Origin: Candidatus Iainarchaeum sp.
GTDB lineage: Archaea; Iainarchaeota; Iainarchaeia; Iainarchaeales; GCA-2688035
Reading direction: 5' to 3'
Assembly: GCA_017610205.1 (NCBI GenBank)
Contig: JAFCCL010000003.1
Span: 62,353-126,352, forward strand
DNA: 64,000 nt
Part shown: positions 3,472-60,066 of the stretch, one piece after another
How the letters are laid out: each line of letters begins with the position of its first letter
How positions within the stretch are numbered: position 1 is the stretch's first letter
Notes under the pieces: generated by a model
Told to the model about the DNA's origin: nothing
What the model saw: the letters and a program-made list of their open reading frames with translations, nothing else
Databases searched by the model: none
Position numbers and translations under genes: made by a program

Positions 3472-4188
3472 TTACATTTTAATTATTTTTGCAGCGCACA
3501 ATGCAGCATTTTCTCCTCTTCCCAAGCCGACCCAAAGACCTTTTGTTGCAAGTGCTGACAATTTCAACGCGTCGCTTTTTTCTGAATCTTCCTTTATTGG
3601 TACAAAAATAACCAATTGTTTTTCAGGGTCAACTGCTTCAACTGTGCCAATTTCAATAAAGTCAATGTAAACTGCTTCACTGTCATTATAGGAATCCTCT
3701 TCCTGTTCTTCAAACGGAACGTCCAATTCTTTAAGTGTTTCTTTGCATGCTCTGATTCTTTTTTCAATTTCCGGGCTTTGCTCTGTTGCAACAAGAATTG
3801 CCTTTTTCTTTCCATGCAAAATGTTTACAACAGCGTCAACTGTTTCTTCAATTGCTTCAACTCCTGTTCCAAGCACTGCAAAGCCCTTTGGCATTTGATG
3901 AATGCTTAGTAAGGCATCCAATCCAAAATAGTTCGCATTTACTGGAATTCCTATTACTATTTTGTCTGAGTGTGATGCAATAAATCCTGGAAGTGCTGCA
4001 CTCAATCCTGCTCCTGCAATTACAACCTTTTCGTCGCTTTCTTTGAGTATTTTTTCAAGCCTTTTAGGTTCCCTGTGCGCAGAGCAAACCTCAAGCTTTG
4101 CCTCAATTCCTTTTTCTTCAAGCTTTTCCATTAGCTTGCTGTAAACAGCCTTGTCTGAATCACTGCCAAAAATTACCAGTACTCTCAA
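3472..4188 (-). CDS. purE: AIR carboxylase/N5-CAIR mutase with a second, degenerate PurE-like C-terminal domain
   Basis: GSDSD, SAHR, AGLSAALPG, GLDALLSIHQMPKG motifs; likely TTG start at 4188 (ORF track start 4248). Confidence 0.88.
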   Translation of the reverse strand: MRVLVIFGSDSDKAVYSKLMEKLEEKGIEAKLEVCSAHREPKRLEKILKESDEKVVIAGAGLSAALPGFIASHSDKIVIGIPVNANYFGLDALLSIHQMPKGFAVLGTGVEAIEETVDAVVNILHGKKKAILVATEQSPEIEKRIRACKETLKELDVPFEEQEEDSYNDSEAVYIDFIEIGTVEAVDPEKQLVIFVPIKEDSEKSDALKLSALATKGLWVGLGRGENAALCAAKIIKM

Positions 4189-6974: not shown

Positions 6975-7820
6975 TTGGGAAATGTTTTAGGCAGTAGTAA
7001 AATAGCAGCAAAGCTTTTTGAAGAAACCAGTGTTATGCTTGAGAATCTGCACATGAAAAAAATATATCCAAACCTTGCTGTAATCCTTGTAGGCAACAAT
7101 CCTGCATCCGAACTTTATGTTAAAAAAAAGAAAATTGCGTGTGACGAGCTTGGCATTGAATTTGAATTGTTAAGGTTTGCTGAAAACATTTCACAAAGAG
7201 ACATCCTTCAGATTATAAACGACCTCAATCACAAGATTTCAGTTAACGCAATTCTTGTCCAAATTCCTTTGCCAAAGCAACTTGACTCTTCAATAATTCT
7301 TAACACTGTTTCTCCACTAAAGGACGTTGATGGCTTTACTGCATTTAACCTTGGTCTTTTGAGTTATGGCAAGGAAGAAATTGTTTCATGCACTGCTCAG
7401 GGCATTGTAAAACTTTTGGAAAGTACTGGAACAACAATTGAGGGAAGCAATGCCTGTATTATAAACCACAGTATTATTGTTGGAAGGCCTTTGAGTCAGC
7501 TTTTACTTAACCGTGGTGCAACTGTTACCGTATGTCATGCTAAAACAACAGACCTTGCAATGCACACAAAAAATGCAGATATTCTTATTACAGCTGTTGG
7601 AAAACCAGGTCTTATTAATGGCGATATGGTAAAGCCAGGTGCGGTGGTAATTGATGCCGGAATTGCAAGAAAAAACGGAAAAACAGTTGGCGATGTTGAT
7701 TTTGAAAGTGTAAAAGACGTTGCTTCATATATTACTCCTGTTCCTGGTGGCATTGGTCCAATGACAATTGCCTGTCTTGTGAACAATGTTGCAAAGCTTG
7801 CAATGCTTCACAATCAATAA
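6975..7820 (+). CDS. folD: Methylene-THF dehydrogenase/cyclohydrolase
   Basis: YVKKK, KDVDGF, IVGRPL, VIDAGI, GDVDF, TPVPGGIGPMT; likely TTG start 6975 (ORF track 6873). Confidence 0.95.
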   Translation: MGNVLGSSKIAAKLFEETSVMLENLHMKKIYPNLAVILVGNNPASELYVKKKKIACDELGIEFELLRFAENISQRDILQIINDLNHKISVNAILVQIPLPKQLDSSIILNTVSPLKDVDGFTAFNLGLLSYGKEEIVSCTAQGIVKLLESTGTTIEGSNACIINHSIIVGRPLSQLLLNRGATVTVCHAKTTDLAMHTKNADILITAVGKPGLINGDMVKPGAVVIDAGIARKNGKTVGDVDFESVKDVASYITPVPGGIGPMTIACLVNNVAKLAMLHNQ

Positions 7821-24291: not shown

Positions 24292-24426
24292 TTAAAAACC
24301 AACATTACTTCTTTGCCGCAAGTCCATTCAGAAGCTTTTTTTTTATTTAAAATAATTAGGCCTGTTTTCCATTAAAAGTTGTTACTTATTCCTTTTTTCC
24401 CCTCCGAACTATTATGGGAATTAGTT

Positions 24427-25020
24427 CTATTTTTCTGAAAGCATTTCCTTCAATTTTTTTCTTGCATTGAAGATAACCCTTTGAGCTGTTCCTGTTGGAA
24501 CGCCAAAATGTGCAGCGGTTTCCCTGTATTTCTTTGGAGTGTTTCCTCCAAGGCCTGTGTGGTGGAGAAACATTGCCTTGTCCCTTTGGCTTAAATCAGA
24601 AACGTCCACAAGCATTTTTACAACCTTTATTATTTCCTTCTCATTTGACCTGCCTAACTTGTTCAAAATATTCTTTGTTCCTGGGTTTCTGTTTGAACTA
24701 GTTGTGATATATTCCCTGATGGTTCTTCTGTAGCTTCTTTCAGCTAAGGCATCGTTTAGCATAGAATGTCTTGCAATAACTATTGCAAAGTTTTGTTTGG
24801 GTCTTCCTTTTTGATAATTGCCTGTTCCGGAAACAATTTTTAAGGTGGCCTTTGCCAAATAATCTTCTGCCAGTTCACGCTTTCCGTTTGCAATCCTTAG
24901 AGCCATATGCCCTAACGTTTTCTCAAATGGCTTAACAAATCGGTTGAACCTTTCTTCCGCAACATTCTGTTTCTTTGGCCATTTTTTCATCCACGCAGGG
25001 TTTGCTTTTTTCTTTGCCAT
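24427..25020 (-). CDS. Sigma-70-family (ECF-like) factor
   Basis: Region 2: LGHMALRIANG...LAEDYLAKATLKI...FAIVIARHSML; region 4: LSQRDKAMF...GLGG...YRETAAHFGVPTGTAQRVIFNARKKLKE. Confidence 0.75.
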   Translation of the reverse strand: MAKKKANPAWMKKWPKKQNVAEERFNRFVKPFEKTLGHMALRIANGKRELAEDYLAKATLKIVSGTGNYQKGRPKQNFAIVIARHSMLNDALAERSYRRTIREYITTSSNRNPGTKNILNKLGRSNEKEIIKVVKMLVDVSDLSQRDKAMFLHHTGLGGNTPKKYRETAAHFGVPTGTAQRVIFNARKKLKEMLSEK

Positions 25021-25179
25021 AAAAGAATTTAACATTCAACTATTTAAATAAATAGTGCAACAGGATGGTTTTGAATAAATGGATTGCAGTGTAAGATATT
25101 CAAACCAGCATTAGTACCAGCTATATACTAATGTTGTTAAATTTTGTTGTTCTTAAAGTATTCTATTAACTGTAACAGT

Positions 25180-26649
25180 TTAAATTTTTCCCGTTAGCTG
25201 GGTGGTGAGGCTGTCGTGCAGTATTTGGTAATATTGTTGGTTGCGGTGTTTGCTGGTCATGTATAGGGATGCTTGCATGGCATAGCTTTGCATGTGTTTT
25301 GTGCTTCTGTTTTGTTGGCTGATTTTGCGTTTTAGGACTTCGTGTCTTAGGTCTCGTTCTGCTCTGTTGTTTGTGGGGTCAACGTATGGGTATTCGAGGA
25401 AGGTGAACCACTTGCCTTGTTGTTTAAGGATGTATTTTTTGAGGCGCAGGGTGTTTTTTCCAAACCATCTGTTTTGTCGCCTGTTTTTTTCTCCTAATAG
25501 GGTTAGGATTTCTGTGTCGTATTTTTGTCTGAGTTCTTTGGAGCAGCCGATTTCGCGTTTGTCTTTTTTTGCTTGGCTAAAGGGTTGCATGATTTTTTCT
25601 ACAAGTGTTTCGTAGTCTCTTTTTTCCTTTTTTGTTTTGAAGTAGTGCTTGGGCTTTTTTGCAAGCCTGGATAGGTGTTCCCAGCACTTTTGCTGTTTTT
25701 TGCTGGTTTTATTGTATGCTGCAAGCGCGTCAGAGATTGTAACGCAGTCTTTGTTGGTTTTTAGGGAGCATGCTGTTTCCGAGTTTCGTTTTTCTGTTAT
25801 TTGAAAGTAAACTGTTTGTGCTGTGCTTGCAACCCATAGCCAGTTTAGTTTTCCGTTTTTTTGCCACCCTGTTTCGTCACGATGCACGAACAAGGCCTTT
25901 TGTATTTCTTCCTCAAGATTTTTGTAATCTTCTTTTAGGTAGTCTTTGAGTCGTTGCAGGGTATTGCTTACTGTTGCAGGCGAGATGTCCAAGCTGAAGA
26001 TGGTTGAGAACAGTTCGCTTATTTTCCTATCAGACATGTTAAAGCCTGTGAACAGCACTGATATGAGGATTGCTGTATTTAAGTCAAACTTGCTGCCAGG
26101 CAAAGCGTCAGGTAGCCTTGGAATAACCTCTTTCTTGCAGTCCAGGCAGTAGTATGCTCAGATCTTGTTGAGTACGCGTTCAAGTGTTGGGGACTTGATG
26201 TGGATTGTCGTGCGAAAATACTTTTTCTTCTTTCTTGTTATCCTTGTTCCTCCACAGCAAGGGCAACGCTTCATAGTAACGTCTCTCTCCCTATCATGGA
26301 CTTTTGGCCTGGAGTTGCGCAGGTTCTGTTTAGGTTTTCCCTGTTCTGGTTTCAACGCTTCCTGCACTTTGTTCCTCAAACCAGGTTTCAAATGGGGTGG
26401 GATACTGCCTGAAGGGGTGTTCTCGTTCTGATATTTTCGCAGCTCTCCTAAAAGCCGCTTATTTTCCTTAAGTAAGAACATAAGCTGATCTTTAAACTCG
26501 AAAATAATCTTGTCCTTTTCAGCGATGATTTTTCTTTGTCCAGCAACTATCTCTTTTAGTACAGTAACCTGTTCAGCAATCTTCTTTTCCAGTTCTACAG
26601 TGTTAGCTTCAAAGCGTTCTGTTATTTTGCGAAGTTTAGCCTTGTTCAT
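25180..26649 (-). pseudogene. IS66 transposase with a single in-frame TGA
   Basis: Coiled coil, PSGSIPP, CPCC/CLDC zinc finger, DETGW, SD, QKCWEHL, PTNNRAERDLR; the two ORFs are in frame across TGA at 26158-26160. Confidence 0.88.
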
Positions 26650-26783
26650 GATATCAACACAACTCTAACTCTCTTACCAATCCACTTCTTTGGCAAGTAA
26701 ACCCTGCCACTATTACCGCTAGATTGAACGAGCTTCTCAATGACCTCATAGCCCTCCAATCGAATCGAAATAGCCTTTTTCAT
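26646..26783 (-). CDS. DUF2080-like transposon-associated small protein (AbrB-like)
   Basis: Manual translation MKKAISIRLEGYEVIEKLVQSSGNSGRVYLPKKWIGKRVRVVLIS; ATGA overlap with transposase start. Confidence 0.8.
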   Translation of the reverse strand: MKKAISIRLEGYEVIEKLVQSSGNSGRVYLPKKWIGKRVRVVLIS

Positions 26784-26804
26784 GTAGCTACAATGTAGCT
26801 ACAT
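26782..26804. promoter_or_regulatory. Double palindromic operator at the DUF2080 start
   Basis: TGTAGCTACA twice (26783-26792, 26794-26803); the whole 23-mer is palindromic. Confidence 0.6.
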
Positions 26805-26980
26805 AGATTGGTTAAACATATCTATCAGCCAAAACAACACAAAATGCGTCAAAAAGAGGATATTTTTAAACTGTTACTATTTTTTGACAAGTTATTTATA
26901 AATAAAACAACATATAATTGACAAAAAATAGCTATTTATCGAGTATATTTTTGACAATTACTTTATAAATAGAATCTATT

Positions 26981-27166
26981 TTGAATGACAATTTGCATAA
27001 TCTAAAGGGGTGGGGTGATGAAATTATACCCAAAATCGAACTTGAAATCAAAGCCCAGGTGGAAAAGGAGATTTACGAAACTTTTGAAGCAAAACTCAAG
27101 ATATCTGGCTATAACTCAAAAGCTGAGTGGTTGAGAGAGCAAATAAGGAATTTCCTTGAAAAATAA
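26981..27166 (+). CDS. Small ribbon-helix-helix (CopG/NikR-like) protein; start uncertain
   Basis: IKAQVEKEIYETFE...GYNSKAEWLREQIRNFL pattern. Confidence 0.6.
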   Translation: MNDNLHNLKGWGDEIIPKIELEIKAQVEKEIYETFEAKLKISGYNSKAEWLREQIRNFLEK

Positions 27167-27252
27167 TTATGCATACTACCAATGTGATTTACTGCCTTAA
27201 TTTTAAGGAACTTTTATTAAATTATTTAGCTGTTTTCTAATAGGTGAAAATT

Positions 27253-27396
27253 ATGGCAGATAATAAATTTTCTGGCCCTGTTGTAATGCAATGTAATGGT
27301 CTTGATTGTTCTTTTAGAGGTAAAACAAAACATGTGCCAGTTACTGCAAATGGTGATTTAAAGTGTCAGTGTACTGAATGCGGCCATATAGAATAA
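27253..27396 (+). CDS. 47-aa zinc-ribbon microprotein
   Basis: AGGTGA SD; MADNKFSGPVVMQCNGLDCSFRGKTKHVPVTANGDLKCQCTECGHIE. Confidence 0.6.
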   Translation: MADNKFSGPVVMQCNGLDCSFRGKTKHVPVTANGDLKCQCTECGHIE

Positions 27397-27494
27397 TAAC
27401 CAATATTCTTCCTTATTTTTATCTATAAATCCCTTATTTGTCTCCATAAACCCTCTTAGTCATTGCGCATGATTGCAGGGGGGATGATTCGAAA

Positions 27495-27548
27495 GCCGTC
27501 TCGCCCGGCTAGTGCGAGTGCCATCTTCGTTTGGACTCGATGACACAG
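27495..27548. repeat. Structured dispersed element, copy 1
   Basis: gccgtctcgcccggctagtgcgagtgccatcttcg...ctcgatgacac; similar to copies at 28891 and 59586. Confidence 0.75.
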
Positions 27549-27550
27549 TT

Positions 27551-27634
27551 TGCACGGGAGCGGATTCGAACCGCTGAACGCACTAAGCGACAGGATCTTG
27601 AGTCCTGCGGGTTTGACCGCTTCCCTACCCGTGC
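27551..27634 (-). tRNA. tRNA-Leu(CAA)
   Basis: Cloverleaf with long variable arm, anticodon loop CT-CAA-GA, GGTTCGAATCC; no encoded CCA. Confidence 0.93.
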
Positions 27635-27686
27635 ATATAGAAGGAAAACAAGTGAAATAATTTAAATTCGTTGGTTGGAGCCTGTT

Positions 27687-28052
27687 TTAGAATTCTAGCT
27701 CGTCGCCAATTTTTATGTTTGGAAACTTTCCCTTTGATGCTTTTAAAAACAATGCGCCTTTTTGCCCTTCTTCAATTAAATCAGTTTCTTTGTTTTCAAT
27801 CTGAATGCTTTTAACTTCAAATTTTTGGCCCCTGAATTTTGCTTTGCTTTTTTTCCTAATGCTTCCTCCAGCTATCCCTTTTACCATTAGGCTGTCGTGC
27901 ACGTGAAAGATTCCTGTTACAGCAAACCCGTGGCTTGCCGGAACAATTTCTTCCGTTTCCAATCCCTTTTTTGCCCTGCTTACGTCAGGAATGCATACTC
28001 CCAAATCGTGCTTTTTTTTGTCTTTTTGAAAAAGCTCTTGAAAAAGCCTCAA
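27687..28052 (-). CDS. Small protein with EF-Tu domain-II-like beta-barrel
   Basis: FAVTGIFHV...VKG...GSIRK...EVKSIQIE...EGQKGALFL pattern. Confidence 0.55.
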   Translation of the reverse strand: MRLFQELFQKDKKKHDLGVCIPDVSRAKKGLETEEIVPASHGFAVTGIFHVHDSLMVKGIAGGSIRKKSKAKFRGQKFEVKSIQIENKETDLIEEGQKGALFLKASKGKFPNIKIGDELEF

Positions 28053-28152
28053 AACAAAAACACCCCTATATCTATAGCCCTTGAAAAGTATAAAAAGCTA
28101 TCAACAAAGAGATTTTTTTTAAAAAAAACCACGGTGAGATTATCCGGACAAG

Positions 28153-28848
28153 TTATCCCTGGCCATAGTAAGCGTTCTTTCCGTGCTTTCTCAAAAAGTG
28201 CTTGTCCAGCAGAGCCTGGTCAATTGCTTTTGTTTCAGGATTAACCTTCAATGTTTCAATGTTCATTCTTGCAACCTGCTCCAAAACAACAGCGTTCTCA
28301 ACAGTCTTTTCTGCTGTTTCACCGAAAACAAACGGGCCATGGTTTGCAACCAAGCAGGCAGGCACTTGCAGGGGGTCAATCTTTTTTTCTTCAACGGTTT
28401 CAACAATTACTTTACCAGTGTTTGCCTCGTAATCGTTGACAATTTCCTCTTCACTAAGTTTTCTTGTAACCGGAACCTTTCCAAAAAAATGATCAGCATG
28501 CGTTGTTCCAAAGCACTCAATTCCCTTCAATGCCTGTGCAAAAGTCGTTGCATGAGTGGAGTGTGTGTGAACAACGGACTTTATTTTCGGAAAATTGCGG
28601 TAAATCTCCAAATGCGTTGGAGTATCAGAACTTGGTCTTTTATCCCCTTCAACAACCTTTCCTTCAAGGTCTACGAGAACAATGTCCTCTGTTTCCAATT
28701 CCTCAAAGGAAACCCCACTTGGCTTTATTGCAACAATTTTTTTCTCAAAATCAATTTCGCTCAAATTGCCCCAGGTAAAAATAACCAGACCATGCTCTGC
28801 CAACGCCACATTTCCTTCACAAACCCTTTCCTTTAATTCTTCAAGCAT
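28153..28848 (-). CDS. araD: L-ribulose-5-phosphate 4-epimerase (class II aldolase family)
   Basis: TWGNLS, IKPSGV, PSSDTPTH, HTHS, GTTHADHF, HGPF, KHFLRKHGKNAYYGQ. Confidence 0.92.
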   Translation of the reverse strand: MLEELKERVCEGNVALAEHGLVIFTWGNLSEIDFEKKIVAIKPSGVSFEELETEDIVLVDLEGKVVEGDKRPSSDTPTHLEIYRNFPKIKSVVHTHSTHATTFAQALKGIECFGTTHADHFFGKVPVTRKLSEEEIVNDYEANTGKVIVETVEEKKIDPLQVPACLVANHGPFVFGETAEKTVENAVVLEQVARMNIETLKVNPETKAIDQALLDKHFLRKHGKNAYYGQG

Positions 28849-28890
28849 TTTAGTATTAAATTTGGATTAGTTTAAATCACTTTTGGCAAA

Positions 28891-29015
28891 GCCGTCACGC
28901 CCGGCAGCCGCCACAGCCGGCTGATCAGAGTGTCATCTTCCGCCGAAAACCCGGAGATTGTTACACTATCTTCACAACCTTCGGTTGCTCGATAGAGTAG
29001 CTCGATGACACGAGC
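28891..29015. repeat. Structured dispersed element, copy 2 (with nested hairpin)
   Basis: gccgtcacgcccggc...gagtgtcatcttc...ctcgatgacacg. Confidence 0.7.
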
Positions 29016-29131
29016 CGAAAATACAAAAAATAAAAAAGTTAACATTATCATCTTTCCACTGGTTCTTTTAATTTCGCAGCATATACTGAATTCGATATAT
29101 TTTTATATTACAATGTATAACATAGTATCTT

Positions 29132-29443
29132 ATGGATAAGTTAGATAAAATGGATAATATTTGCATTAGACTGGATACAGGGCTTTCTAGGAAAATCGAA
29201 AGGGATATGAAAGAGTTTCATTATAGCACTAAAACTGATTTTGTTAGGGATGCTATTAGAACCAAACTTTCTTTGTTGGATGAACAGAGGGCAAAGAAAA
29301 AAGCTTGGGCTGCGTTATTTGCCGCAAGAGGTTCTTTGAAAGGAAAGTTTCCAGTGAGAACTAATGAAGAAGAGCAAGTGTTTGAAAAAAGGCTTAATAA
29401 GGAAATATTAGAACATTTTGAGAAAAAATTTAGCCTTAAGTAA
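29132..29443 (+). CDS. Ribbon-helix-helix antitoxin-like protein
   Basis: NICIRLD...HYSTKTDFVRDAIR. Confidence 0.75.
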   Translation: MDKLDKMDNICIRLDTGLSRKIERDMKEFHYSTKTDFVRDAIRTKLSLLDEQRAKKKAWAALFAARGSLKGKFPVRTNEEEQVFEKRLNKEILEHFEKKFSLK

Positions 29444-29864
29444 AATAAATATCTTCTGGCTTTTGCACTTCAACAATTGAAGACAAAGAGTCAAAGAAAT
29501 GGTTATCACGAGCAACTAATACTGCCTGATTGTCTCTTGCAATAATGGCATGAAGAACACCCTTAAACGGAAGCGCTTTGTTTCTTTTTCTCCATTCTTC
29601 TCTTGCTTCTGAAGTCTGTTCGGCACTAGCATCAAGCCAAGTAATCATACTTTCAAAAGAAGAAAAAATTTCCTTTGATTGTTCTTCAGAAAAACGGATT
29701 TTTAGCTCCAAAACAACAACATCCGAAACAAAAATCACAGCATTGTTTTCACTGCATTTTCTAAGGAATTGAAATGCAAACTCTCCAAGAGGCCTGGTGC
29801 CATCGCCCCTGTCCTCAAAGTAATCCCGCCAAATTGCAGTATCCAAGTAAAACTTTTTGACCAT
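29436..29864 (-). CDS. PIN-domain (VapC-like) protein
   Basis: YLDTAIW, VVLEL, LHAIIA, LVARDNHF. Confidence 0.85.
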   Translation of the reverse strand: MVKKFYLDTAIWRDYFEDRGDGTRPLGEFAFQFLRKCSENNAVIFVSDVVVLELKIRFSEEQSKEIFSSFESMITWLDASAEQTSEAREEWRKRNKALPFKGVLHAIIARDNQAVLVARDNHFFDSLSSIVEVQKPEDIYFT

Positions 29865-30165
29865 AGGAACACCATGCCGGCAACTTATTTAAAGCAAAAC
29901 CCCTTTTTACGGCGCCTCTTTTTAATTCCAACAAATTTCCAATCTTTCCTTCTTCAACTGAAAAACAGTTGAAGTCTTTCTGTGAGTGCTCTATCATTTG
30001 GTTTAATCGCAGGGGACGTGCGAAATCAATTTCTCTAACGCAGGCTTCAGAAACATTTTGATGATTTTATTCTGATAATACTTTTTGCAATTGAACCAAA
30101 AACTGCTTTAATTCAGGAAACAGCAATTTGTTTATAGGTAAAAATGTTTTGGTTGTGGTGGGTAA

Positions 30166-30510
30166 ATGTATAGCAAAGTGAAATCAAAATTTATTAAGAA
30201 TAAAATCAAAGAGCGAAACTGGAAGAGCAAGGATTACATTGACGATTTAATTTATTTAGAGGAATATATATCAGGGGAAATTTACGGACTTGGCGGGAAT
30301 TGGAAAGCTGCTTCGATGAAAAGCGAATATAAAAAGGAATACGATGCCATATTCAAAGAATTAAAGCCCAAGGACTTTAAACAATACATTAAACAGGAAA
30401 GGCGGGAAGCAGAAAGGGAACGGAAAGAAAACGAAAAATTTGAAAAGCGAGAGCAAAGAGAGCACAGAGAAGCGAAGAAAGACTGGATTAAAGCAGGTGG
30501 AAAAACCTAG
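30166..30510 (+). CDS. Hypothetical charged protein
   Basis: 114-aa ORF with upstream SD-like GGTG. Confidence 0.6.
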   Translation: MYSKVKSKFIKNKIKERNWKSKDYIDDLIYLEEYISGEIYGLGGNWKAASMKSEYKKEYDAIFKELKPKDFKQYIKQERREAERERKENEKFEKREQREHREAKKDWIKAGGKT

Positions 30511-30590
30511 GCTTTGTCGGCAACGCCCTAACGAAAGAATATGAAAAGCTCAAAGAATTGCAGGAAATGGAACCTTATTCAACCTTTCCC

Positions 30591-30708
30591 CAAAACCCAA
30601 CCCGTACCCGTTTGCTCTGACCTGCAAATGCCTCGTCAATGCCTTGTCAATCCTCTCGCAATTTTTTTTGTTTTTTTTATTTTTTTGTTTCTTTTTTTTA
30701 TTTTTTTG
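30591..30708. repeat. ~120-bp triple-box + T-tract repeat, copy 1
   Basis: caaaacccaacccgtacc...gcaaatgc/gtcaatgc/gtcaatcc...ctcgcaa followed by T-tracts. Confidence 0.85.
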
Positions 30709-30719
30709 TGGTTTGTTGT

Positions 30720-31895
30720 TTAGGGTTTGCTGAGTTTTTCTTTGAGTTTGAAGGCGTTTGTGAATGTGATTTTGCAGCCGTTGATTTTGGTTGTTTCGTT
30801 TGTTTCCTTATAGGTTATTACAAAGCCTTCTTTTGGTTTGTAGGTTTCAATAAAAGACCTTAGGCTTTTTCCCACCTTGTCTGGTTTTGCATTTAGCTTT
30901 ACTTCTATTGGAATAGGCTTGCCGTTCTTTTCTACAACAAAGTCAACTTCTGCTTTTGCCTTTGTTCTCCAGTACTTTGGAGAAAAACCAGCCTTAACCA
31001 ACTCTGACAAGACATAGTTTTCAAACAGCAGGCCGTCAGGTTCAGGGCTAAAATTGTCAACTATGCTGTTTCTTAAGCCAGTGTCCACAAAATAGAGTTT
31101 TGGCTGTTTTGTAATTTCCTTGGTTTTGTTTGTATGAAACGGAGACACCCTTAGGATAAGATAGCTTTTTTCCATGGCGTCAAGATACCGTTTGACTGTT
31201 TGAAAAGAGACATTCATCTGTTTTGAAATGCTTTCGTAAGAAAGAGCTGTTCCGGTATTGACAGCCAGGTATTTGCTAAACTGTTCAAGGCTTCCAATAT
31301 CATTAATGGAAAAAGTTCCGGCAATGTCTTTGAAAATCATTGTGCTATAAAGGTCTTTGAGAATGATTTTTTTTGTTTCAACATCCTGAGTTAAAACCAC
31401 TTTAGGATAGCCACCAAAAATCAAGTGTTCCCAAACAGCCCTTTTTAGGATAGCGGGCGTTAAGCTTTTTTGCTTTCTTGCAGCCAAAAATTCATTAAGT
31501 GAAAAGGGGTAAAGTTTGAGAATGGAAACCCTTCCAACAAGAAATGACAAAATATCCTTGCTTAAAATCATTTCAGACGAAGCTGTTATCCAAGCCTTTT
31601 TTCCAGTATCAGCCAAATACTTTAATTTTGTTCCAGCCCCCTTGCAATACTGCACTTCATCCAAAACACTAACATCAAAACCCTCAATATACTGCTTTTC
31701 AAACTTTTTTATATCTTCCTCAAAAAGGCCCCTGGCATCGGGATCATCAAACAAGACATAAGAAGAATTCATACGCTTTGTTTGTTCCCTGAGAAAAGTG
31801 GTTTTGCCAGCCTGCCTGGCTCCAACCAAAGCAATGATATTGTAGGCACTTGCAACCTTTCCAAACCTTTTCTCAATATCCCTTTCTACAAACAT
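30720..31895 (-). CDS. AAA+ ATPase with DUF4143/PD-(D/E)xK C-terminus
   Basis: GARQAGKT, LDEVQ, GGYP, KLYFVDTG, FEN, EVDFV...IEVK. Confidence 0.88.
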   Translation of the reverse strand: MFVERDIEKRFGKVASAYNIIALVGARQAGKTTFLREQTKRMNSSYVLFDDPDARGLFEEDIKKFEKQYIEGFDVSVLDEVQYCKGAGTKLKYLADTGKKAWITASSEMILSKDILSFLVGRVSILKLYPFSLNEFLAARKQKSLTPAILKRAVWEHLIFGGYPKVVLTQDVETKKIILKDLYSTMIFKDIAGTFSINDIGSLEQFSKYLAVNTGTALSYESISKQMNVSFQTVKRYLDAMEKSYLILRVSPFHTNKTKEITKQPKLYFVDTGLRNSIVDNFSPEPDGLLFENYVLSELVKAGFSPKYWRTKAKAEVDFVVEKNGKPIPIEVKLNAKPDKVGKSLRSFIETYKPKEGFVITYKETNETTKINGCKITFTNAFKLKEKLSKP

Positions 31896-31990
31896 GAAAA
31901 AAATATTGCACAAAACAATTTAAAAACCTTACTAAAATTAAACTTGAGTTAAGGAATAGTGCGACTAAAATTGAAGTGCTGTTTAATTTT

Positions 31991-32149
31991 GGTGAAAAAG
32001 GGGCAGACAAACGTTACAAAAACGATTATTTCCTCAAAGGCTTCTGCTTTGAAATAATCCCAAAATACCTCAAAAACTACATTAAAATTGTCAAAAACAA
32101 CAAAGAACTCAAAGAAGAACTAAACGCGTTTAGAAAAAAACTTCAATAA
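31991..32149 (+). pseudogene. Gene remnant (C-terminal fragment)
   Basis: Open frame GEKGADKRYKNDYFLKGFCFEIIPKYLKNYIKIV...KLQ* without a clear start. Confidence 0.35.
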
Positions 32150-32194
32150 ATTTCACTCAGTAAATTTTATCAGCCAACCAGCCTTTAAAAAAAT

Positions 32195-32313
32195 CAAAAC
32201 CACCCTCCCTGTACGGCCCTTCGGGCATATGTTAATGCTGTGTCAATGCAGGTCAATGCTCTCGCAATTTTTTTTATTTTTTTTTGTTTTTTTTTGTTTT
32301 TTTTTATTTTTTT
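32195..32313. repeat. ~120-bp triple-box + T-tract repeat, copy 2
   Basis: gttaatgc/gtcaatgc/gtcaatgc, ctcgcaa, T-tracts interrupted at 32276, 32286, 32296 and 32306. Confidence 0.85.
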
Positions 32314-32332
32314 AGGGGGAAATTGAGAGAGA

Positions 32333-32983
32333 TTAAATTGTTTTTAGTTCTCCGTTTGGTTCATTGATTTGTCTACATGTTTCAAGGTAAGCTAGGTCTG
32401 CTTCCTTTTTACTAAAATAATCATAATGGGTTCTTTCCCCAATATTTAGTTTTGCAGGAGAAAAAGGTTGCTTTGACCTATGGCCAAAGGAAATTACTGC
32501 AAGAGGAATATGTGATTTTGGTATGTTGGCTGCTTTAGTAATTGTTGCATCATCAAAACTACTCATCCACAAGGAATCAATATCAAGAGCTGTTGCTGTT
32601 AAAAGCATGTTTTGAATTGCCGCAGCAGCATCCATGTAAATGAACATTTTTTCACCTTTTTCCTTTGTTGTAATATCATGACTTGAAATTTCTCCAACTT
32701 TTCCGGCAAGTTCAAGATTTCCAACTACCAGGATTGATAATGGAGCAGTTTTTGGCTGGTTTTGCCTGCAGGCATCAGCAATCCTTTCCTTTTGCTTTTC
32801 ATCTTTTAAAATAATAAATTCAAGCGGTTGCAGGTTTCTTGCACTAGGAGCATGTTTTGCAGCTTCAAGAATAAGCCCAAGAGAATGCCTTGAAATAACG
32901 TCATTTTGCTGGAAAGACCTCACACTCCTTCTTTTCCTGATTAATTCAGAAAGCAATTTATAGGAAGCCATTGCTTTGCCCAT
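32333..32983 (-). CDS. Nitroreductase-family protein
   Basis: RRSVRSF, APSARNLQP, DAAAAIQNMLLTA. Confidence 0.9.
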   Translation of the reverse strand: MGKAMASYKLLSELIRKRRSVRSFQQNDVISRHSLGLILEAAKHAPSARNLQPLEFIILKDEKQKERIADACRQNQPKTAPLSILVVGNLELAGKVGEISSHDITTKEKGEKMFIYMDAAAAIQNMLLTATALDIDSLWMSSFDDATITKAANIPKSHIPLAVISFGHRSKQPFSPAKLNIGERTHYDYFSKKEADLAYLETCRQINEPNGELKTI

Positions 32984-33096
32984 ACTAAATAATAGTGAAT
33001 ATGCTCTATCTATAGTTTTCCTCTATTTAATATATGCATTGAAAAAATTCCAAAATAAATATATTTATGAATAGTTGCATATTATTTTCATATGTA

Positions 33097-34062
33097 ATGA
33101 AGAGGCGTATTATAAAACAGGGAAAGGACAGTTTTACCCTTACTTTGCCAAAAAGCTGGATTAGGAGTCTTGGACTCAAAGGAGGGGACGAGATTGATTT
33201 ACTTGAAGAAAAAGGCCTTCTTATTATTGGCGCAAAAAAGGCCATGCCAAGCTCAAAACTTATTGTTAACGCAGACAAGTTTGGCAATGCATTGCTTCAC
33301 TATCTTTGCGCAGTATACAGGGGAGGAGTTGACGAAATAGAAATCACGTTTTCAGAATCTAACACAATTGAAACAGTGCAAAAGATTTTAAGCGATTATT
33401 TAATTGGTTTTGAAATAGTTTCCCAAGGCAAGGGTTTTTGTATAATCAAAAGCATTTCAATGCCTTTAGAAGCAGAATTTGAAACAATTCTAAACAGGTT
33501 TTTTCTGCAAACAGTTGCAATGGCAAAAAGCATCGCTGAAGCAATAAAAAACAAAGACCTTGACCACCTAAAAGACGTGAGAAAATACGAGATTCCAATA
33601 AACAGGTTTTCAATTTATTGCAGAAGAACACTAAACAAAAGAGGCATTGGAGCATACGAAAATGCAATTCCATTGTATGCATTTATTGACGAACTTGAAA
33701 TAATTGCTGACAGCTACAAGCACTTGTGTGACTACTTTCTCATATTAGGTGGCAAAATTGAAGCCATTAACCCAGAAGTTCAAAAACTGCTTGGTCAATT
33801 GTTTGAATTACTTGAACAAAACCAAAACCTTTTCCACAAATTCAGCGAAGAAAAAGCAGTTTCTTTTTGGAAAAAAAAGCAAGAGGTTTTGAAAGAAACC
33901 CTTTCTCTGTTTAAGAAAAGCAGCGGAGAAAATACAAAAGTTCTTGGATACATTATTAATATCATAGAACTACTTACCCATATATTCTACCTGAAGATGA
34001 CTATAGAAGTTAAAATTAAGCTCTTCGAAAAAAATCAAAAAGAAACAATAAATAGCACCTAA
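33097..34062 (+). CDS. AbrB-PhoU phosphate uptake regulator-like protein
   Basis: RRIIKQG...LTLPKSW...GDEI N-terminal AbrB; PhoU-like helical repeats, LEIIAD. Confidence 0.8.
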   Translation: MKRRIIKQGKDSFTLTLPKSWIRSLGLKGGDEIDLLEEKGLLIIGAKKAMPSSKLIVNADKFGNALLHYLCAVYRGGVDEIEITFSESNTIETVQKILSDYLIGFEIVSQGKGFCIIKSISMPLEAEFETILNRFFLQTVAMAKSIAEAIKNKDLDHLKDVRKYEIPINRFSIYCRRTLNKRGIGAYENAIPLYAFIDELEIIADSYKHLCDYFLILGGKIEAINPEVQKLLGQLFELLEQNQNLFHKFSEEKAVSFWKKKQEVLKETLSLFKKSSGENTKVLGYIINIIELLTHIFYLKMTIEVKIKLFEKNQKETINST

Positions 34063-34118
34063 CAAATTCGTTTTCTTGTAAAAAACACCTAAAAAGGTTT
34101 TGGAATTCACCTTTTCCT

Positions 34119-34234
34119 CAAAACCCAACCCGTACCCGGCCCTTTGGACATGTGTTAATGCTGCGTCAATGCATGTCAATTCTCTCGCAATTTTTTTTAT
34201 TTTTATTTTTTGTTTTTTTTTTTGTTTTTTTTTG
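34119..34234. repeat. ~120-bp triple-box + T-tract repeat, copy 3
   Basis: caaaacccaacccgtacccg...gttaatgc/gtcaatgc/gtcaattc...ctcgcaa followed by T-tracts. Confidence 0.85.
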
Positions 34235-34262
34235 TCAGAAAAAAAGAGTGCAGTGGGTGAGA

Positions 34263-34721
34263 TTATTTTTTTCCCAGTTTCAGCAACTTTTTGATTCTTT
34301 CAACAAAATTTTCGACTTCATCGTAAATTTCTTCCAAATCTTCCTCTAATTCTGGTTGCTCAAGCGAGTACTGAATAGTGTTTCTTCTTTGCCTTAGGGA
34401 ATCCAGGACAATAGCTTGCCTCATTGTGATTATTTCCTTTTCACCATACTTTTCTTCAATGTATTTGCTTACGCAGTAATGGCTTCTCTCCTTTACTCCG
34501 TCTTTGAATAGCAGGGCTCTTGCTGCGTGAAAGGATGCATTGTATAATGCAATGAATGCCATGTCCTTGATTTTTGTTTCAATCAGTTCTTCGGCTTCCT
34601 TAAGGAAGTGTTCTGGCTGCTTAATGCTTTGTTTTGCATAATTCGTGTTTGGCTCAATCTTTTTGAGCATTCCTTCCTCAAAGCACTTTTCAACCTTGCT
34701 TTTAGCCAAGTTTTTCACCAT
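34263..34721 (-). CDS. HEPN domain protein
   Basis: YNASFHAARALL...ERSH, RNTIQY. Confidence 0.85.
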   Translation of the reverse strand: MVKNLAKSKVEKCFEEGMLKKIEPNTNYAKQSIKQPEHFLKEAEELIETKIKDMAFIALYNASFHAARALLFKDGVKERSHYCVSKYIEEKYGEKEIITMRQAIVLDSLRQRRNTIQYSLEQPELEEDLEEIYDEVENFVERIKKLLKLGKK

Positions 34722-35259
34722 GCAGTATTTTTGACTTGTATTCCAATTCTCGGTAGAAAATTTTGTCCCTTGCTTTAAGTTTCTCTAATGACCTGTAAGT
34801 TAAAAACTTTAAGTTAGTTTCCTTCCCAAGCTCTTTGGATATTTTGGCACTGATTTCAGCCGAGTCTCCAAACCCGATTTTTTTTCCAGACAAAATCCAT
34901 ATGTCAATGTCACTGTGCTTGTCAACGCTTCCTTCAACCACGCTTCCAAAGACCCCGATTGCCTTGCTGTTTTTCTTCAACTCGGAAAACGACCGGCTTT
35001 CCAAAATTTTTTTTATGAAGACAAGGGAAACAATCTCTTTTGTAAGCGGGTTTTTCCTGTTTAATTCAACAATCTTCATGTTCTTTTTTGGTTTTATATT
35101 AATCAAGTTGTCCCCCCCAAACAATTTTACAAACTGGGTTATTTTTGCAGGAGAACAGCCTATTTCCTTTGCCAGGTCTCTGACAGAAAAAGATTTGTTA
35201 ACAAGTATTTCAAAAATTCGCAAATTGAATCCTGTCATTAGCCTTGAAAGTTCAACCAT
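34702..35259 (-). CDS. wHTH + minimal nucleotidyltransferase (MNT) antitoxin
   Basis: N-terminal HTH; FGSVVEG...SDIDI. Confidence 0.88.
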   Translation of the reverse strand: MVELSRLMTGFNLRIFEILVNKSFSVRDLAKEIGCSPAKITQFVKLFGGDNLINIKPKKNMKIVELNRKNPLTKEIVSLVFIKKILESRSFSELKKNSKAIGVFGSVVEGSVDKHSDIDIWILSGKKIGFGDSAEISAKISKELGKETNLKFLTYRSLEKLKARDKIFYRELEYKSKILHGEKLG

Positions 35260-35316
35260 AACAAAACAAATATTGTTAACTATTTATAAACATAATGTTT
35301 ACAAAAAATAAGAAAA

Positions 35317-35400
35317 CGCAGGGGACGAGATTCGAACTCGCGCGTCCAAAAGGACACGAGCTTAGCAGGCTCGCGCATTAAACCACTCTGCCACCCCTGC
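35317..35400 (-). tRNA. tRNA-Ser(GCT)
   Basis: Cloverleaf, CGAGC-CTGCTAA-GCTCG anticodon arm, long variable arm, GTTCGAATC. Confidence 0.93.
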
Positions 35401-35571
35401 ATTATATTTTGCAATGGTGGCAGTCATTTTTCCCGAGGCTTTTGCCCGGAAGGGGAAAAAGCTTTCTGCCACCCCTGCAGGTTAAACAAATTAGCTGTGT
35501 TATCTATTTAATTGTTTTCATGCTTTTGAAAAGAAGCCTTTTTATACTTGAAAATGCTTTTAGTTTAATTA

Positions 35572-35877
35572 ATGGAAAACATTAAGCCATTTGAACTTTA
35601 TGCAGTACTGCTTATTCTCTGTGCAGCAGTGCTTTTCTTTGGCTTGTTTCAAATGCAGGCAAGCCTTAATGCAGTAATGAACAAGCAGGCCTTTTCATCG
35701 TTTCAATTTGCTTTGAAGGGGGTTCAAATTTCTGCAATAGGACTTCTTCTAACCACATTTATTCTTTTTGTTTTTTTCAGACGGCTTCGCAAAAAGCACA
35801 GGGTACTGCGCAAAAAGCACAGGGAACTAAAGGAAAAAGTTGAATCAAAAAAGAAAAAACCGTCTAAGAAGAAATGA
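35572..35877 (+). CDS. 2-TM hypothetical protein with basic tail
   Basis: Two hydrophobic helices; Lys-rich C-terminus. Confidence 0.6.
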   Translation: MENIKPFELYAVLLILCAAVLFFGLFQMQASLNAVMNKQAFSSFQFALKGVQISAIGLLLTTFILFVFFRRLRKKHRVLRKKHRELKEKVESKKKKPSKKK

Positions 35878-35910
35878 GCGCGAGAAACAATAACTTGGTT
35901 TTTTTTGTGG

Positions 35911-36894
35911 TCACTTTTTGAGTTGTTTTTTTGAGTGTTGTTTTATTACTTCTTCTGCGAGGAATTTTGTGAATGGCTTGTAGTCTTTTTTGTTTCCGGC
36001 TGTCTGTGTTTTCATGTAGTTTTGTCTTCTTTTCAGGGGAATGCTTGTGAAAGGGAAGTTTTGTTGTTGCAGTATGTAGTTCATAAGTAGTCTCGCCATT
36101 CTTCCGTTGCCGTCAGCAAATGGGTGAATTGAAGTAAATTTTGTGTGGAATTTTGCTGCTAATTCAACTGGATGAATTAAGGGTTTGTTTTCTTCAAACA
36201 ATTCAATTAGTTTTTTCATTTGGCTTGGAACCTGTTGTGGCGGTGGGAACTCGTGTGTAGAGCCTCTTATGTAAACTTGAACCGGCCTGTAAATTCCTTG
36301 GTATTTTTCATAGCCTTGAATCTTTTCAAGCAAGATGTAGTGCAGTTGCAGTATTATTTTTTCTGAAATTTTTGCATTTATTTTTTTGTATCGGTTGTAT
36401 CTGTCCAAGCAGGCTTTTAGGTTTAAGGCTTCTTGTTCTTCCCTGTTAATTCCTGTTACAATAATGTGCTTTTTTTCAGCGGCTTTGATTTCTTTTTCGT
36501 GTTCAAGAATTTCCTCAGTTTCACTGTATTTCAGGCTACTTCCTTCAATGGCGTTACTGTCGGTTATGAAGGTTATTCTTTCTCTTTTAATGAACTCTTC
36601 TCTTTGCTTTTTTGAGAGTTTTCTCAAAAACTTCTTTTTGTTCGACATTGCTTTCCAAAGATTTAATGCTGTTTTGTTTGAGATAAACTCTGTTAAAGGC
36701 AAGACAAGAATTGCGTGATTTTTTTGCTTACATTTTTTTTCCAAGGATTTAAAAGCAGCCAGCAATTTTTCGTTTGAAGGTTTTTCAGAGCCAAGGTAAA
36801 TGCTTTCCTTTCGCCACTTTCCCTTCAACTTAAAGCTCTCTTCCAAGTAAAAGTATTTCTTTCCCTTAACAGTTCTTGTGCTTAAATGACTCAT
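35911..36894 (-). CDS. Fic-domain protein
   Basis: SNAIEG, canonical HPFADGNGRMAR. Confidence 0.93.
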   Translation of the reverse strand: MSHLSTRTVKGKKYFYLEESFKLKGKWRKESIYLGSEKPSNEKLLAAFKSLEKKCKQKNHAILVLPLTEFISNKTALNLWKAMSNKKKFLRKLSKKQREEFIKRERITFITDSNAIEGSSLKYSETEEILEHEKEIKAAEKKHIIVTGINREEQEALNLKACLDRYNRYKKINAKISEKIILQLHYILLEKIQGYEKYQGIYRPVQVYIRGSTHEFPPPQQVPSQMKKLIELFEENKPLIHPVELAAKFHTKFTSIHPFADGNGRMARLLMNYILQQQNFPFTSIPLKRRQNYMKTQTAGNKKDYKPFTKFLAEEVIKQHSKKQLKK

Positions 36895-36899
36895 AAAAA

Positions 36900-36941
36900 G
36901 TTATCACTGCAAAAACCATTTAAACACATGCCGGTGATAAC
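36900..36941. promoter_or_regulatory. Inverted repeat bracketing the Fic promoter TATA-like box
   Basis: GTTATCAC (36900-36907) ... GTGATAAC (36934-36941) around TTTAAA. Confidence 0.45.
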
Positions 36942-37061
36942 TCAGGGAGTTATTACCCAAACAGTTTTAGCCACCCAAACCAGTGATAATTAAAGTTAAA
37001 AAGAATGTTGTCTACAACAAAATCGCCTTCCAAATTAAATGCTGAACCTTTGTTGGCTGGC

Positions 37062-59729: not shown

Positions 59730-59861
59730 ATGGGTACTAGAAAGAAGGATTCGTCGCGTTTCAAGAAATCGCACTCTAAACAGCGGTGGAAATGGCATAA
59801 GAAAAAGATGCGAAGAAAGCAGAAGAAAAAGCGCTATTTGAGAAAAAGAGCTAAAAGCTAA
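59730..59861 (+). CDS. rpl41e: Ribosomal protein eL41 (eS32)-like
   Basis: Not in ORF track: MGTRKKDSSRFKKSHSKQRWKWHKKKMRRKQKKKRYLRKRAKS; RWKWxKKxxRR core. Confidence 0.75.
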   Translation: MGTRKKDSSRFKKSHSKQRWKWHKKKMRRKQKKKRYLRKRAKS

Positions 59862-60066
59862 ATGCTTTTAAGCTAAGAGCTAAATGCTTTTGAGTCAAAA
59901 GCTAAATGCTTTTAAGCTAAGAGCTAAATGCTTTTGAGCTAAGAGCTAAATGCTTTTAAGCTAAGAGCTAAATGCTTTTGAGTCAAAAGCTAAATGCTTT
60001 TTTTTTTTGGAAAATTGCCAAGAGCTAAATGCTTTTTTTTAAGAGAATTAAAAGCTAATTGTTTTT
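59853..60066. repeat. 22-bp tandem repeat of hairpin AARAGC-TAAAT-GCTTTT
   Basis: Units at 59853, 59875, 59897, 59919, 59941, 59963 and 59985, plus detached copies near 60020 and 60050. Confidence 0.92.

Follow-up and report, generated by a model that had tools for sequence, protein, structure and literature searches.

We analysed a stretch of 64,000 nucleotides (nt) from a Candidatus Iainarchaeum genome, hereafter called the window, and found that the DNA adjoining the 3' end of its serine tRNA gene, tRNA-Ser(GCT), is a tRNA-anchored stack of integrase-less cassettes. Regions of this general kind are already known and arise when decayed integrative elements accrete in tandem. Within the window are three direct copies (R1, R2 and R3) of a repeat of about 119 nt, R, which carries three short boxes followed by a long T tract. 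Judged from its placement beside sequences that resemble the tRNA end, R appears to be the conserved tRNA-facing end of three small elements, R1 being assigned by analogy with R2 and R3. On balance we consider it probable that R serves as the end module of these elements and is linked to the attachment site, in which case the boxes would act as a recombinase-binding arm and the T tract as a spacer and transcriptional insulator.

Small-genome DPANN-type archaea depend on gene flow, and the ways in which they acquire and shuffle defence and toxin-antitoxin (TA) genes are poorly known. In the genomes examined here, a single tRNA core, common to two tRNA-Ser genes, received inserts of 76 bp to 7 kb repeatedly, and several of these inserts amount to one TA or defence unit each and bring no recombinase along. 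Below, coordinates without a contig name refer to the window, which lies on contig C17 of the source genome (G000). Among the genomes compared, G002 and G004 belong to the same genus and G016 is a family-level relative.

An insertion at the 3' end of tRNA-Ser(GCT)

The tRNA-Ser(GCT) gene occupies 35316-35401 on the minus strand (ARAGORN), with its attachment core, CGCAGGGGACG..., reading from 35317 on the plus strand. An empty version of the site is found on contig C32 of G002, where tRNA-Ser(GCT) is followed by 30 nt, by a homologue of window 28099-27686 and then by tRNA-Leu. Since tRNA-Ser(GCT) there abuts the gene located left of 28100 in the window, the segment from about 28100 to 35303 aligns as an insertion relative to G002. 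This empty site, together with the core scars described below, supports the claim of a first-pass annotation of this DNA that integrase-less DNA had inserted at the 3' end of tRNA-Ser. The expectation that cargo would vary among relatives also holds: the site is empty in G002:C32, and contig C59 of G004 carries the same ATPase gene with other neighbours.

Four sequences resembling the tRNA 3' end, which we call core scars c0 to c3, mark the insertion. The first, c0 (CCACGGTGAGATTAT, 28129-28143), was placed by alignment and forms the outer boundary of the island, the point at which synteny with the tRNA-Ser flank of G002:C32 ends. The second, c1 (CGCAGGGGACG, 30006-30018), contains the exact 11-nt tRNA-Ser 3' end (30008-30018, identical to 35317-35327) and extends to 13 nt when compared with tRNA-Ser(GGA). 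Taken alone it is weak (blastn-short E-value of 0.19 in 8.3 kb); it is validated by contigs C94 and C118 of G002, on which the homologous flank (window 29961-30018) runs into a longer part of the tRNA-Ser 3' end. ARAGORN detected no whole tRNA on these two contigs, which therefore display a scar rather than an empty site.

Scar c3 (GCAGTGGGTGAGATTA, 34250-34265) matches the tRNA 3' end at 12 of 15 positions, with a nominal p of 0.009. It has GGTGAGATTAT in common with c0, and the only two occurrences of the 10-mer GTGAGATTAT in the whole genome are at 28134 (in c0) and at 34257 (in c3). Because c0 is a boundary defined by synteny, this shared 10-mer indicates that c3 (34250-34264) is a genuine scar and represents the same variant of the core as c0. 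Both tRNA-Ser remnants listed in the first-pass annotation, 30008-30018 at 11/11 and 34250-34264 at 12/15, are thus retained. Scar c2 (AGGGGGA...GAGAGATTA, 32314-32335) is located directly past the T tract of R2. The TTA of c2 is the stop codon of a nitroreductase gene, and that of c3 the stop codon of a HEPN gene.

On the plus strand of 27000-36000, the 7-mer GAGATTA occurs only at 28136, 32329 and 34259, the last two positions being 16 nt past the T tract of R2 and 24 nt past that of R3. The motif GTGAGATTA, scored at a minimum of 8 matches out of 9, has 125 occurrences genome-wide (P of 0.0018 per 40-nt window) and only three on the same plus-strand segment, one of which is c2. Seven T-tract ends were examined for it: a match follows R2, R3 and one fragment (piece C) of contig C109 of G002, and none was found past R1, pieces A and B of that contig, or a related element on G004:C59, whose T-tract end has GTGAAGATT with one extra base. 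When the sequence past each T tract was compared with the tRNA core itself, the result was nominally significant at R3 only, and it was the variant-core motif that proved informative. A further exact 13-nt match to the tRNA-Ser 3' end, at 33183-33195, was considered as a scar and rejected; it falls within the intact AbrB-like domain of a 331-aa gene and is probably a chance occurrence.

Architecture of the repeat R

From left to right, R consists of a C-rich start (CAAAACC), some 20 variable nt, three GTYAATGC-like boxes, CTCTCGCAA and the T tract. All three copies read on the plus strand. R1 (30591-30709) has the C-rich start, boxes at 30624, 30635 and 30646 that read GCAAATGC, GTCAATGC and GTCAATCC, then CTCTCGCAA and a T tract at 30662-30709. 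R2 (32195-32313) has a divergent C-rich start, boxes at 32231, 32242 and 32252 (GTTAATGC, GTCAATGC and GTCAATGC), CTCTCGCAA and a T tract at 32268-32313. R3 (34119-34235) combines an R1-like start with an R2-like middle, its boxes lying at 34154, 34165 and 34175 (GTTAATGC, GTCAATGC and GTCAATTC) and its T tract at 34191-34235. The starts of the three copies at CAAAACC (30591, 32195 and 34119) and the spacing of 10-11 bp between boxes agree with the first-pass annotation, the exact values being 11+11 bp in R1 and 11+10 bp in both R2 and R3.

The T tracts measure 45-48 nt and are interrupted by single bases that are nearly always purines. The same annotation had described tracts phased with the DNA helix. 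This is exact in R2, where the tract is broken each 10 bp (32276, 32286, 32296 and 32306, leaving runs of 8, 9, 9, 9 and 7), and does not extend to R1 and R3, whose runs are irregular (8, 8, 7, 3, 8, 7 and 8, 5, 6, 11, 9, respectively); the copies thus do not conserve a helically phased T tract. The C-rich starts of R1 and R3 form canonical G-quadruplex (G4) motifs on the minus strand, with four runs of at least three G and loops of 2-4 nt. They are the only canonical G4 motifs in the genome, a count that is unremarkable (2 observed for 0.6 expected). Variants of this start on G004:C59 and G002:C109 keep the four G runs with different loops.

Several features make R distinctive within its genome. 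The 15-mer CTCTCGCAATTTTTT is exact in R1-R3 and has no other mismatch-free occurrence in the window. Clusters of GTYAATGC (within 40 bp) are confined to R, among 158 single matches genome-wide. Tracts with at least 35 T per 40 nt number five in the 1.37-Mb genome, three of them being the R copies. The remaining two, at G000:C11:12200-12370 and G000:C22:7640-7900, do not adjoin an Orc1/Cdc6 gene; AT-rich repeats come after one of them and repeated AGTGTAATATATAAGAGTGTAA boxes after the other.

Overall, the R copies are 62-86% alike, and their longest common exact stretches are of about 25 nt, which makes an assembly error through collapsed repeats unlikely. Their resemblance is mosaic: in the left part, R1 and R3 agree at 29 of 33 positions and either of them with R2 at 11-13 of 33, while in the middle R2 and R3 agree at 21 of 24 and either with R1 at 10-11 of 24. 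This pattern points to exchange between copies, and both site-specific and homologous exchange fit it. Differences among copies fall in the box spacers, including a 1-nt indel in R1. The conservation of 8-mers with free spacers, together with the retention of the T tract behind different linkers on G002:C109, has the signature of a double-stranded protein-binding site.

R as the probable tRNA-facing end of small elements

Scars c2 and c3 start 0-14 nt right of R2 and R3, and the boxes end 62-75 nt ahead of these scars with the T tract in between; direct repeats distinct from the core are thus present within about 50-150 bp of the core at R2 and R3. In an array that grows by successive integration at a tRNA, the DNA bordering a scar on its left belongs to the tRNA-facing end of an earlier element. 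R2 and R3 would be such ends, and R1 is placed with them by analogy. This delimits an element B (30019-30709) ending in R1, an element C (30710-32313) ending in R2 and an element D (32336-34235) ending in R3. Element E, a HEPN-MNT pair next to the tRNA gene, is a later arrival without R, and layer A, with aldolase and RHH-PIN genes, is older and also without R.

We propose that site-specific recombination of the kind carried out by tyrosine integrases placed four or five short integrase-less elements, in succession, at the 3' end of tRNA-Ser(GCT). Every new insertion would have restored the tRNA end and shifted the older elements, each with a decaying core copy, leftward. The three phased boxes are putative protein-binding sites, most plausibly arm-type sites for a recombinase supplied from elsewhere, and the T tract may provide a flexible spacer between boxes and core. 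At integration, the T tract would separate the element from the tRNA gene, and in this position it could also act as a very strong archaeal U-tract terminator that blocks antisense read-through into that gene; the arm and terminator roles can coexist. The 3' fragments of genes found ahead of R1 and R2 may represent host DNA picked up by imprecise excision at earlier sites.

An arm module acting in trans is compatible with this geometry, by analogy with known attachment sites, and is unproven. The stronger proposal that R is the working attachment arm of a miniature integrase-less cassette family is one we put forward tentatively and regard as rather doubtful. In it, the cassettes would be cut out as circles by a tyrosine recombinase that is specific for tRNA-Ser and encoded elsewhere, and the same enzyme would stack them at tRNA-Ser genes; the unit, subject to the same doubt, would comprise the core, one or two genes, the box triad, poly(dT) and the G4 stretch. 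Were R indeed an arm, the GTCAATGC triad would become a DNA probe for finding the enzyme; were it only an insulator, it would still be an extreme natural archaeal terminator guarding a tRNA gene.

Occurrence of R in related genomes

Searches with the R cores (blastn-short) retrieved only R1-R3 in the source genome. R is thus restricted to the island, rather than dispersed over ordinary convergent gene ends, in line with what had been anticipated. A 22-nt R pattern allowing up to two mismatches was absent from all 60 relatives scanned, and a DNA search of G006 and G014-G017 with 30019-35316 returned nothing but the tRNA. A scan for the exact pattern GTCAATNCTCTCGCAATTTT gave no viral, five metagenome and three genome matches, all without boxes and T tract and hence due to chance. 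In viral contigs, the left-part and box patterns had six and three matches, respectively, none homologous to R.

A sequence-only model of R run on 22 genomes of the family and 150 of the order had its sole convincing matches in fragments on G002:C109, the remaining matches (E-values of 1e-3 to 0.1) being chance on inspection. This 3.4-kb contig is itself a run of small cassettes, with a YoeB-like gene, a membrane protein, two unknowns and an AbrB-PIN pair. Its piece A has two boxes and a short T tract, its piece B two boxes fused to a T tract, and its piece C a C-rich left part (19/20 to R1) followed by T8. Two boxes and a T tract are thus retained with linkers that differ from those of R. A second repeat family (AAACCAC..CCC..ATTCC.AACCA..CACCAC.GCATACTT.CC), whose start is related to the C-rich part of R, was observed just past the stop codons of cassette genes, at positions 100-200 and 830-910 of G002:C109, at G000:C14:43419 and at about 3770-3810 of G005:C155.

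The tRNA-Ser core as an insertion hot spot

Three further loci indicate that the tRNA-Ser core is, as far as can be read from their repeats, a general insertion hot spot. The same 24-27 nt form the 3' end of both tRNA-Ser(GCT) and tRNA-Ser(GGA). On contig C1 of G016, a 7.2-kb element lies between CGCAGGGGACGAGA(G/T)T core repeats (14/15) at 102 and 7342, and its tyrosine integrase (a SAM-like open reading frame (ORF) overlapping a PF00589 catalytic ORF) is directly beside tRNA-Ser(GCT). This element also has a 13-bp inverted repeat (CTTACGCACTGAC / GTCAGTGCGTAAG) at 117-141 and 7316-7341, 10-13 nt inside both core repeats. In the source genome, G000:C3:205765-206700 comprises tRNA-Ser(GGA), a 540-bp pair of small convergent TA-like ORFs and a 16/16 repeat of the tRNA end, past which lies a stop-containing remnant of an integrase N-terminal domain (206487-206669). 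Finally, at about 3130-3360 of G002:C118, two 20-nt copies of the tRNA-Ser core enclose a 76-bp insert that resembles window 27472-27547, just downstream of tRNA-Leu.

As for the enzyme, five PF00589 matches exist elsewhere in G000, corresponding to one Xer-like gene, three large recombinases and one pseudogene. The large recombinases on C18 and C3 are directly beside other tRNAs and the one on C24 is about 4 kb from tRNA-Thr, and no direct repeats of the 3'-most 14-24 nt were found for the three integrase-adjacent tRNAs. Neither a serine recombinase nor an archaeal phage integrase (PF16795) was detected in the genome. The pseudogene, a tyrosine recombinase with two internal stops (G000:C1:76227-80730), is about 2.4 kb from the second Orc1/Cdc6 gene and possibly marks another integrated element.

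The reading of R as a recombination module, as first proposed, accordingly stands in part: two of the three copies are directly beside core scars, as expected for the arm of an attachment site, and a same-core element with a tyrosine integrase exists in G016, but no recombinase matching the boxes was found. Other observations likewise weigh against an attachment-linked R. The window contig carries no match to PF00589, PF16795 or PF00239, which also confirms, for the contig as a whole, the reported lack of an integrase in the window. No GTYAATGC clusters occur near the tyrosine recombinases of G000, the large ones among these are only about 28% identical to the G016 enzyme, and the G016 element has neither boxes nor T tract. 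Layer A, HEPN-MNT, the 540-bp cassette on C3 and the G016 element all use the same core and lack R, so R is not needed for integration there. Classical attachment sites have protein-binding sites on both arms, and elements B, C and D bear no resemblance to one another at their far (left) ends. No scar is detectable past R1, and c2 and c3 overlap stop codons of the cargo, so that their similarity could partly belong to an extended repeat unit. The insulator role meets a difficulty of its own: T runs are not enriched downstream of ORFs in G000 (363, against 409 A runs, for 782 ORFs), and terminator use therefore rests on what is known from other archaea. Finally, all genomes compared are metagenome-assembled.

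Alternative explanations for R

The most serious alternative, possible though in our view rather unlikely, is that R is a transcription boundary only, i.e., a plus-strand U-tract terminator between convergent units that was copied by duplication or homologous recombination; the G-rich stretch and T4-7 would perhaps act for the minus strand, and the boxes would bind a regulator or nothing. The placement of R fits this. Its copies sit between convergent gene ends, each next to the 3' end of a different minus-strand gene as first annotated, with stop codons 10 nt (R1, ATPase), 19 nt (R2, nitroreductase) and 27 nt (R3, HEPN) away. For every copy, the T tract is the first run of at least five T past the upstream plus-strand ORF or remnant, and the tracts are of the archaeal U-tract type (at least 4-7 T on the sense strand shortly past a gene). 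When pieces A and B of G002:C109 are included, all five instances of boxes with a T tract lie downstream of a plus-oriented ORF or remnant, the tract is the first run of at least five T in 5/5, and a convergent gene is faced in 4/5. U tracts are the archaeal termination signal, with more tracts giving stronger termination (PMC8716108), and the mosaic copies fit homologous exchange. However, a tract of 45-48 nt is extreme, given that for most of 782 ORFs the longest run of T in the 80 nt downstream measures 3-7, only five tracts of the R type (at least 35 T in 40 nt) exist in the genome, and R is missing from all other convergent gene ends. A boundary function also leaves unexplained why phased boxes were kept across two genomes and why scars are found right past R2 and R3.

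It is distinctly unlikely that R is functionless debris, made of segmental duplicates in a decaying and rearranging region. Gene fragments, an IS66 transposase and a duplicated aldolase are nearby and R is almost private to one genome, yet identity is uneven along the repeat: boxes 2-3 with CTCTCGCAA have 23-25 of 28-29 columns identical in every pair, for 10-13 of 24-33 in the stretches to their left in pairs involving R1 or R2. In addition, the pairing of boxes with a T tract recurs on G002:C109 with other linkers, and the orientation of R and its position relative to the scars are constant.

Still less probable is an iteron-type replication origin or a partition site left from integrated plasmid-like circles. 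Three 8-bp direct repeats spaced by 10-11 bp beside a long A/T tract are a classical origin layout, and two unrelated viral contigs (L088 and L089) have analogous iteron arrays of 11 bp with a GTCAATGC core. But these share the boxes alone with R, no cassette encodes a replication initiator, the two Orc1/Cdc6 genes of the genome are on other contigs, and three origins within 4 kb would be odd.

Least of all do we credit an attC site in an array of the CALIN type (cluster of attC sites lacking an integron-integrase), a gene for a small structured RNA, or a coding segment with a poly-Phe tail. The TA and defence cargo and the repeat-punctuated cassettes do resemble CALINs, reported in archaea including DPANN (PMC9668308), and an open frame runs through R2 and R3. 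However, consensus folding reaches only -2.8 and -2.5 kcal/mol and shows no compensatory pair, all six strand-copies fold less stably as single-stranded DNA than their shuffled versions do (z of +0.6 to +1.4), and Rfam returns only tRNAs and two sub-threshold chance matches in 27000-37000. The four differences that separate R2 from R3 across the boxes all alter a residue of the open frame (in our reading of the alignments), and R1 has a frame-breaking 1-nt indel. With no conserved fold on either strand, both the attC-type site and the structured RNA are excluded. The integron analogy drawn at first holds only loosely, there being no hairpin on either strand and the cassettes carrying their own divergent intergenic regions.

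Two other candidates were rejected. A miniature inverted-repeat transposable element or other dispersed repeat does not agree with only three clustered copies, all in the island; no inverted repeats were evident on reading the copies, the repeat search having covered direct repeats only. A retro-copy with the A tract as its tail is countered by the lack of a reverse transcriptase in the genome, and the interruptions of the T tract are presumably the wrong bases for archaeal tails.

Cargo of the cassettes

Layer A (cargo at 28153-29997) has no repeat and is absent from G002:C32. It encodes a class II aldolase (28153-28848, minus strand, Pfam), a ribbon-helix-helix (RHH) protein (29132-29443, plus strand, Pfam match below the curated cut-off), a PIN protein (29436-29864, minus strand, weak Pfam match below the cut-off) and a 60-aa ORF (29815-29997, minus strand). 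A second copy of the aldolase gene, 81% identical in DNA, is found at G000:C3:209933-210677, and each copy is a few kb from a tRNA-Ser gene.

The cargo of element B (30019-30590, plus strand) is a 114-aa ORF of unknown family (30166-30510) followed by the remnant of a gene 3' end. This remnant, ahead of R1, ends in frame 0 with ...EMEPYSTF, and its homology to G005:C155 stops exactly at the start of R1.

Element C carries an AAA_14/DUF4143 ATPase (30720-31913) with its upstream region (together 30720-32001, minus strand; Pfam and blastn). This module is 93% identical to G004:C59:1-1046, up to 32001. Past it, G004:C59 continues into unrelated DNA, a CAAAACC...GTAC...T-tract element without boxes, an unrelated 236-aa gene and tRNA-Ser(GGA). 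In the window, the module is followed by the 3'-terminal fragment of a helicase gene (32002-32149, plus strand, listed as a 57-aa ORF), which corresponds to the last ~145 bp of a gene that is intact at G000:C14:49119-50501 (85% nt identity). The helicase homology starts abruptly at 32002, the same point where homology with G004:C59 ends.

The cargo of element D (32333-34062) consists of the nitroreductase (32333-32983, minus strand) and of a divergent AbrB/MazE-like protein with a PhoU-like part (33067-34062, plus strand), both assigned with Pfam and NCBIfam. Element E (cargo at 34263-35259, minus strand), which has no repeat at its tRNA-facing end, encodes the HEPN protein (34263-34721, minus strand, Pfam) and an MNT nucleotidyltransferase (34702-35259, minus strand, Pfam; MntA-like in NCBIfam). 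The nitroreductase, AbrB-like and HEPN-MNT genes had no close DNA match in the ten genus and family genomes searched.

Genomic context

The source genome (1.37 Mb, 37.5% G+C, 92% complete) is archaeal, having two genes for the TATA-binding protein, a protein matched in archaeal controls only. Left of the island, the conserved backbone includes tRNA-Leu(CAA) (27550-27635, minus strand, ARAGORN), which is syntenic with tRNA-Ser(GCT) in G002:C32. Beyond it, the stretch 24300-27550, which holds the IS66-family transposase (25180-26103, Pfam), is absent from the syntenic locus on G002:C32. On the right of tRNA-Ser(GCT) are a Fic gene and an AbiEii/AbiEi-like pair (weak matches under the curated cut-offs), then tRNA-Asn. 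Farther along the window, at 59826-60023, a 22-nt unit, GAGCTAAAAGCTAAATGCTTTT, is repeated in tandem in about nine copies.

Comparison with known systems

In streptococci, integrative and conjugative elements (ICEs), integrative and mobilisable elements (IMEs) and cis-mobilisable elements (CIMEs) accrete in tandem at tRNA 3' ends, the CIMEs having lost their integration genes and kept the flanking attachment sites (PMC5704250). Like CIMEs, the island targets a tRNA 3' end, contains core repeats and decayed older scars, lacks an integrase and has a relative with the same core that bears an integrase. Unlike the streptococcal ICEs and IMEs, it is archaeal (DPANN-like) and devoid of conjugation or mobilisation genes, its units are of 0.5-1.9 kb with one or two TA, defence or stress genes, and three of them share a peculiar end module.

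In archaeal terminators recognised by aCPSF1, the number and length of U tracts raise the efficacy of termination (PMC8716108). The R tracts resemble them in their runs of at least 4-7 T, which likewise lie on the sense strand and follow genes. They depart from the usual terminators by the extreme succession of five or six consecutive T runs, mostly T7-T11, over 45-48 nt, and by their association with boxes and a G4-capable stretch.

Lambda attP has three tandem P' arm sites and a protein-induced bend between arm and core. R similarly has three direct repeats about one helical turn apart, some 60-80 bp from the core, with a stretch between that may bend or flex. It differs from lambda attP in that it has no linked integrase, a single conserved arm, poly(dT) instead of a site for a bending protein, and exact phasing in one copy only.

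CALINs in Archaea are described as integrase-less cassette arrays rich in TA and defence genes, for which the integrase is presumed to act in trans (PMC9668308). The island is likewise made of short TA and defence cassettes punctuated by a recurring site, without an integrase. In contrast to CALINs, R has no attC hairpin, the array is anchored at a tRNA core and not at attI, and each cassette brings its own promoter region, the orientations being mixed. If R is a recombinase-binding arm, the island would represent a second, structurally different route to integron-like cassette stacking. And if R does work as an arm in trans, this would be a DPANN platform for cassette stacking, in which a tRNA core and double-stranded arm sites replace attI and the attC hairpins.

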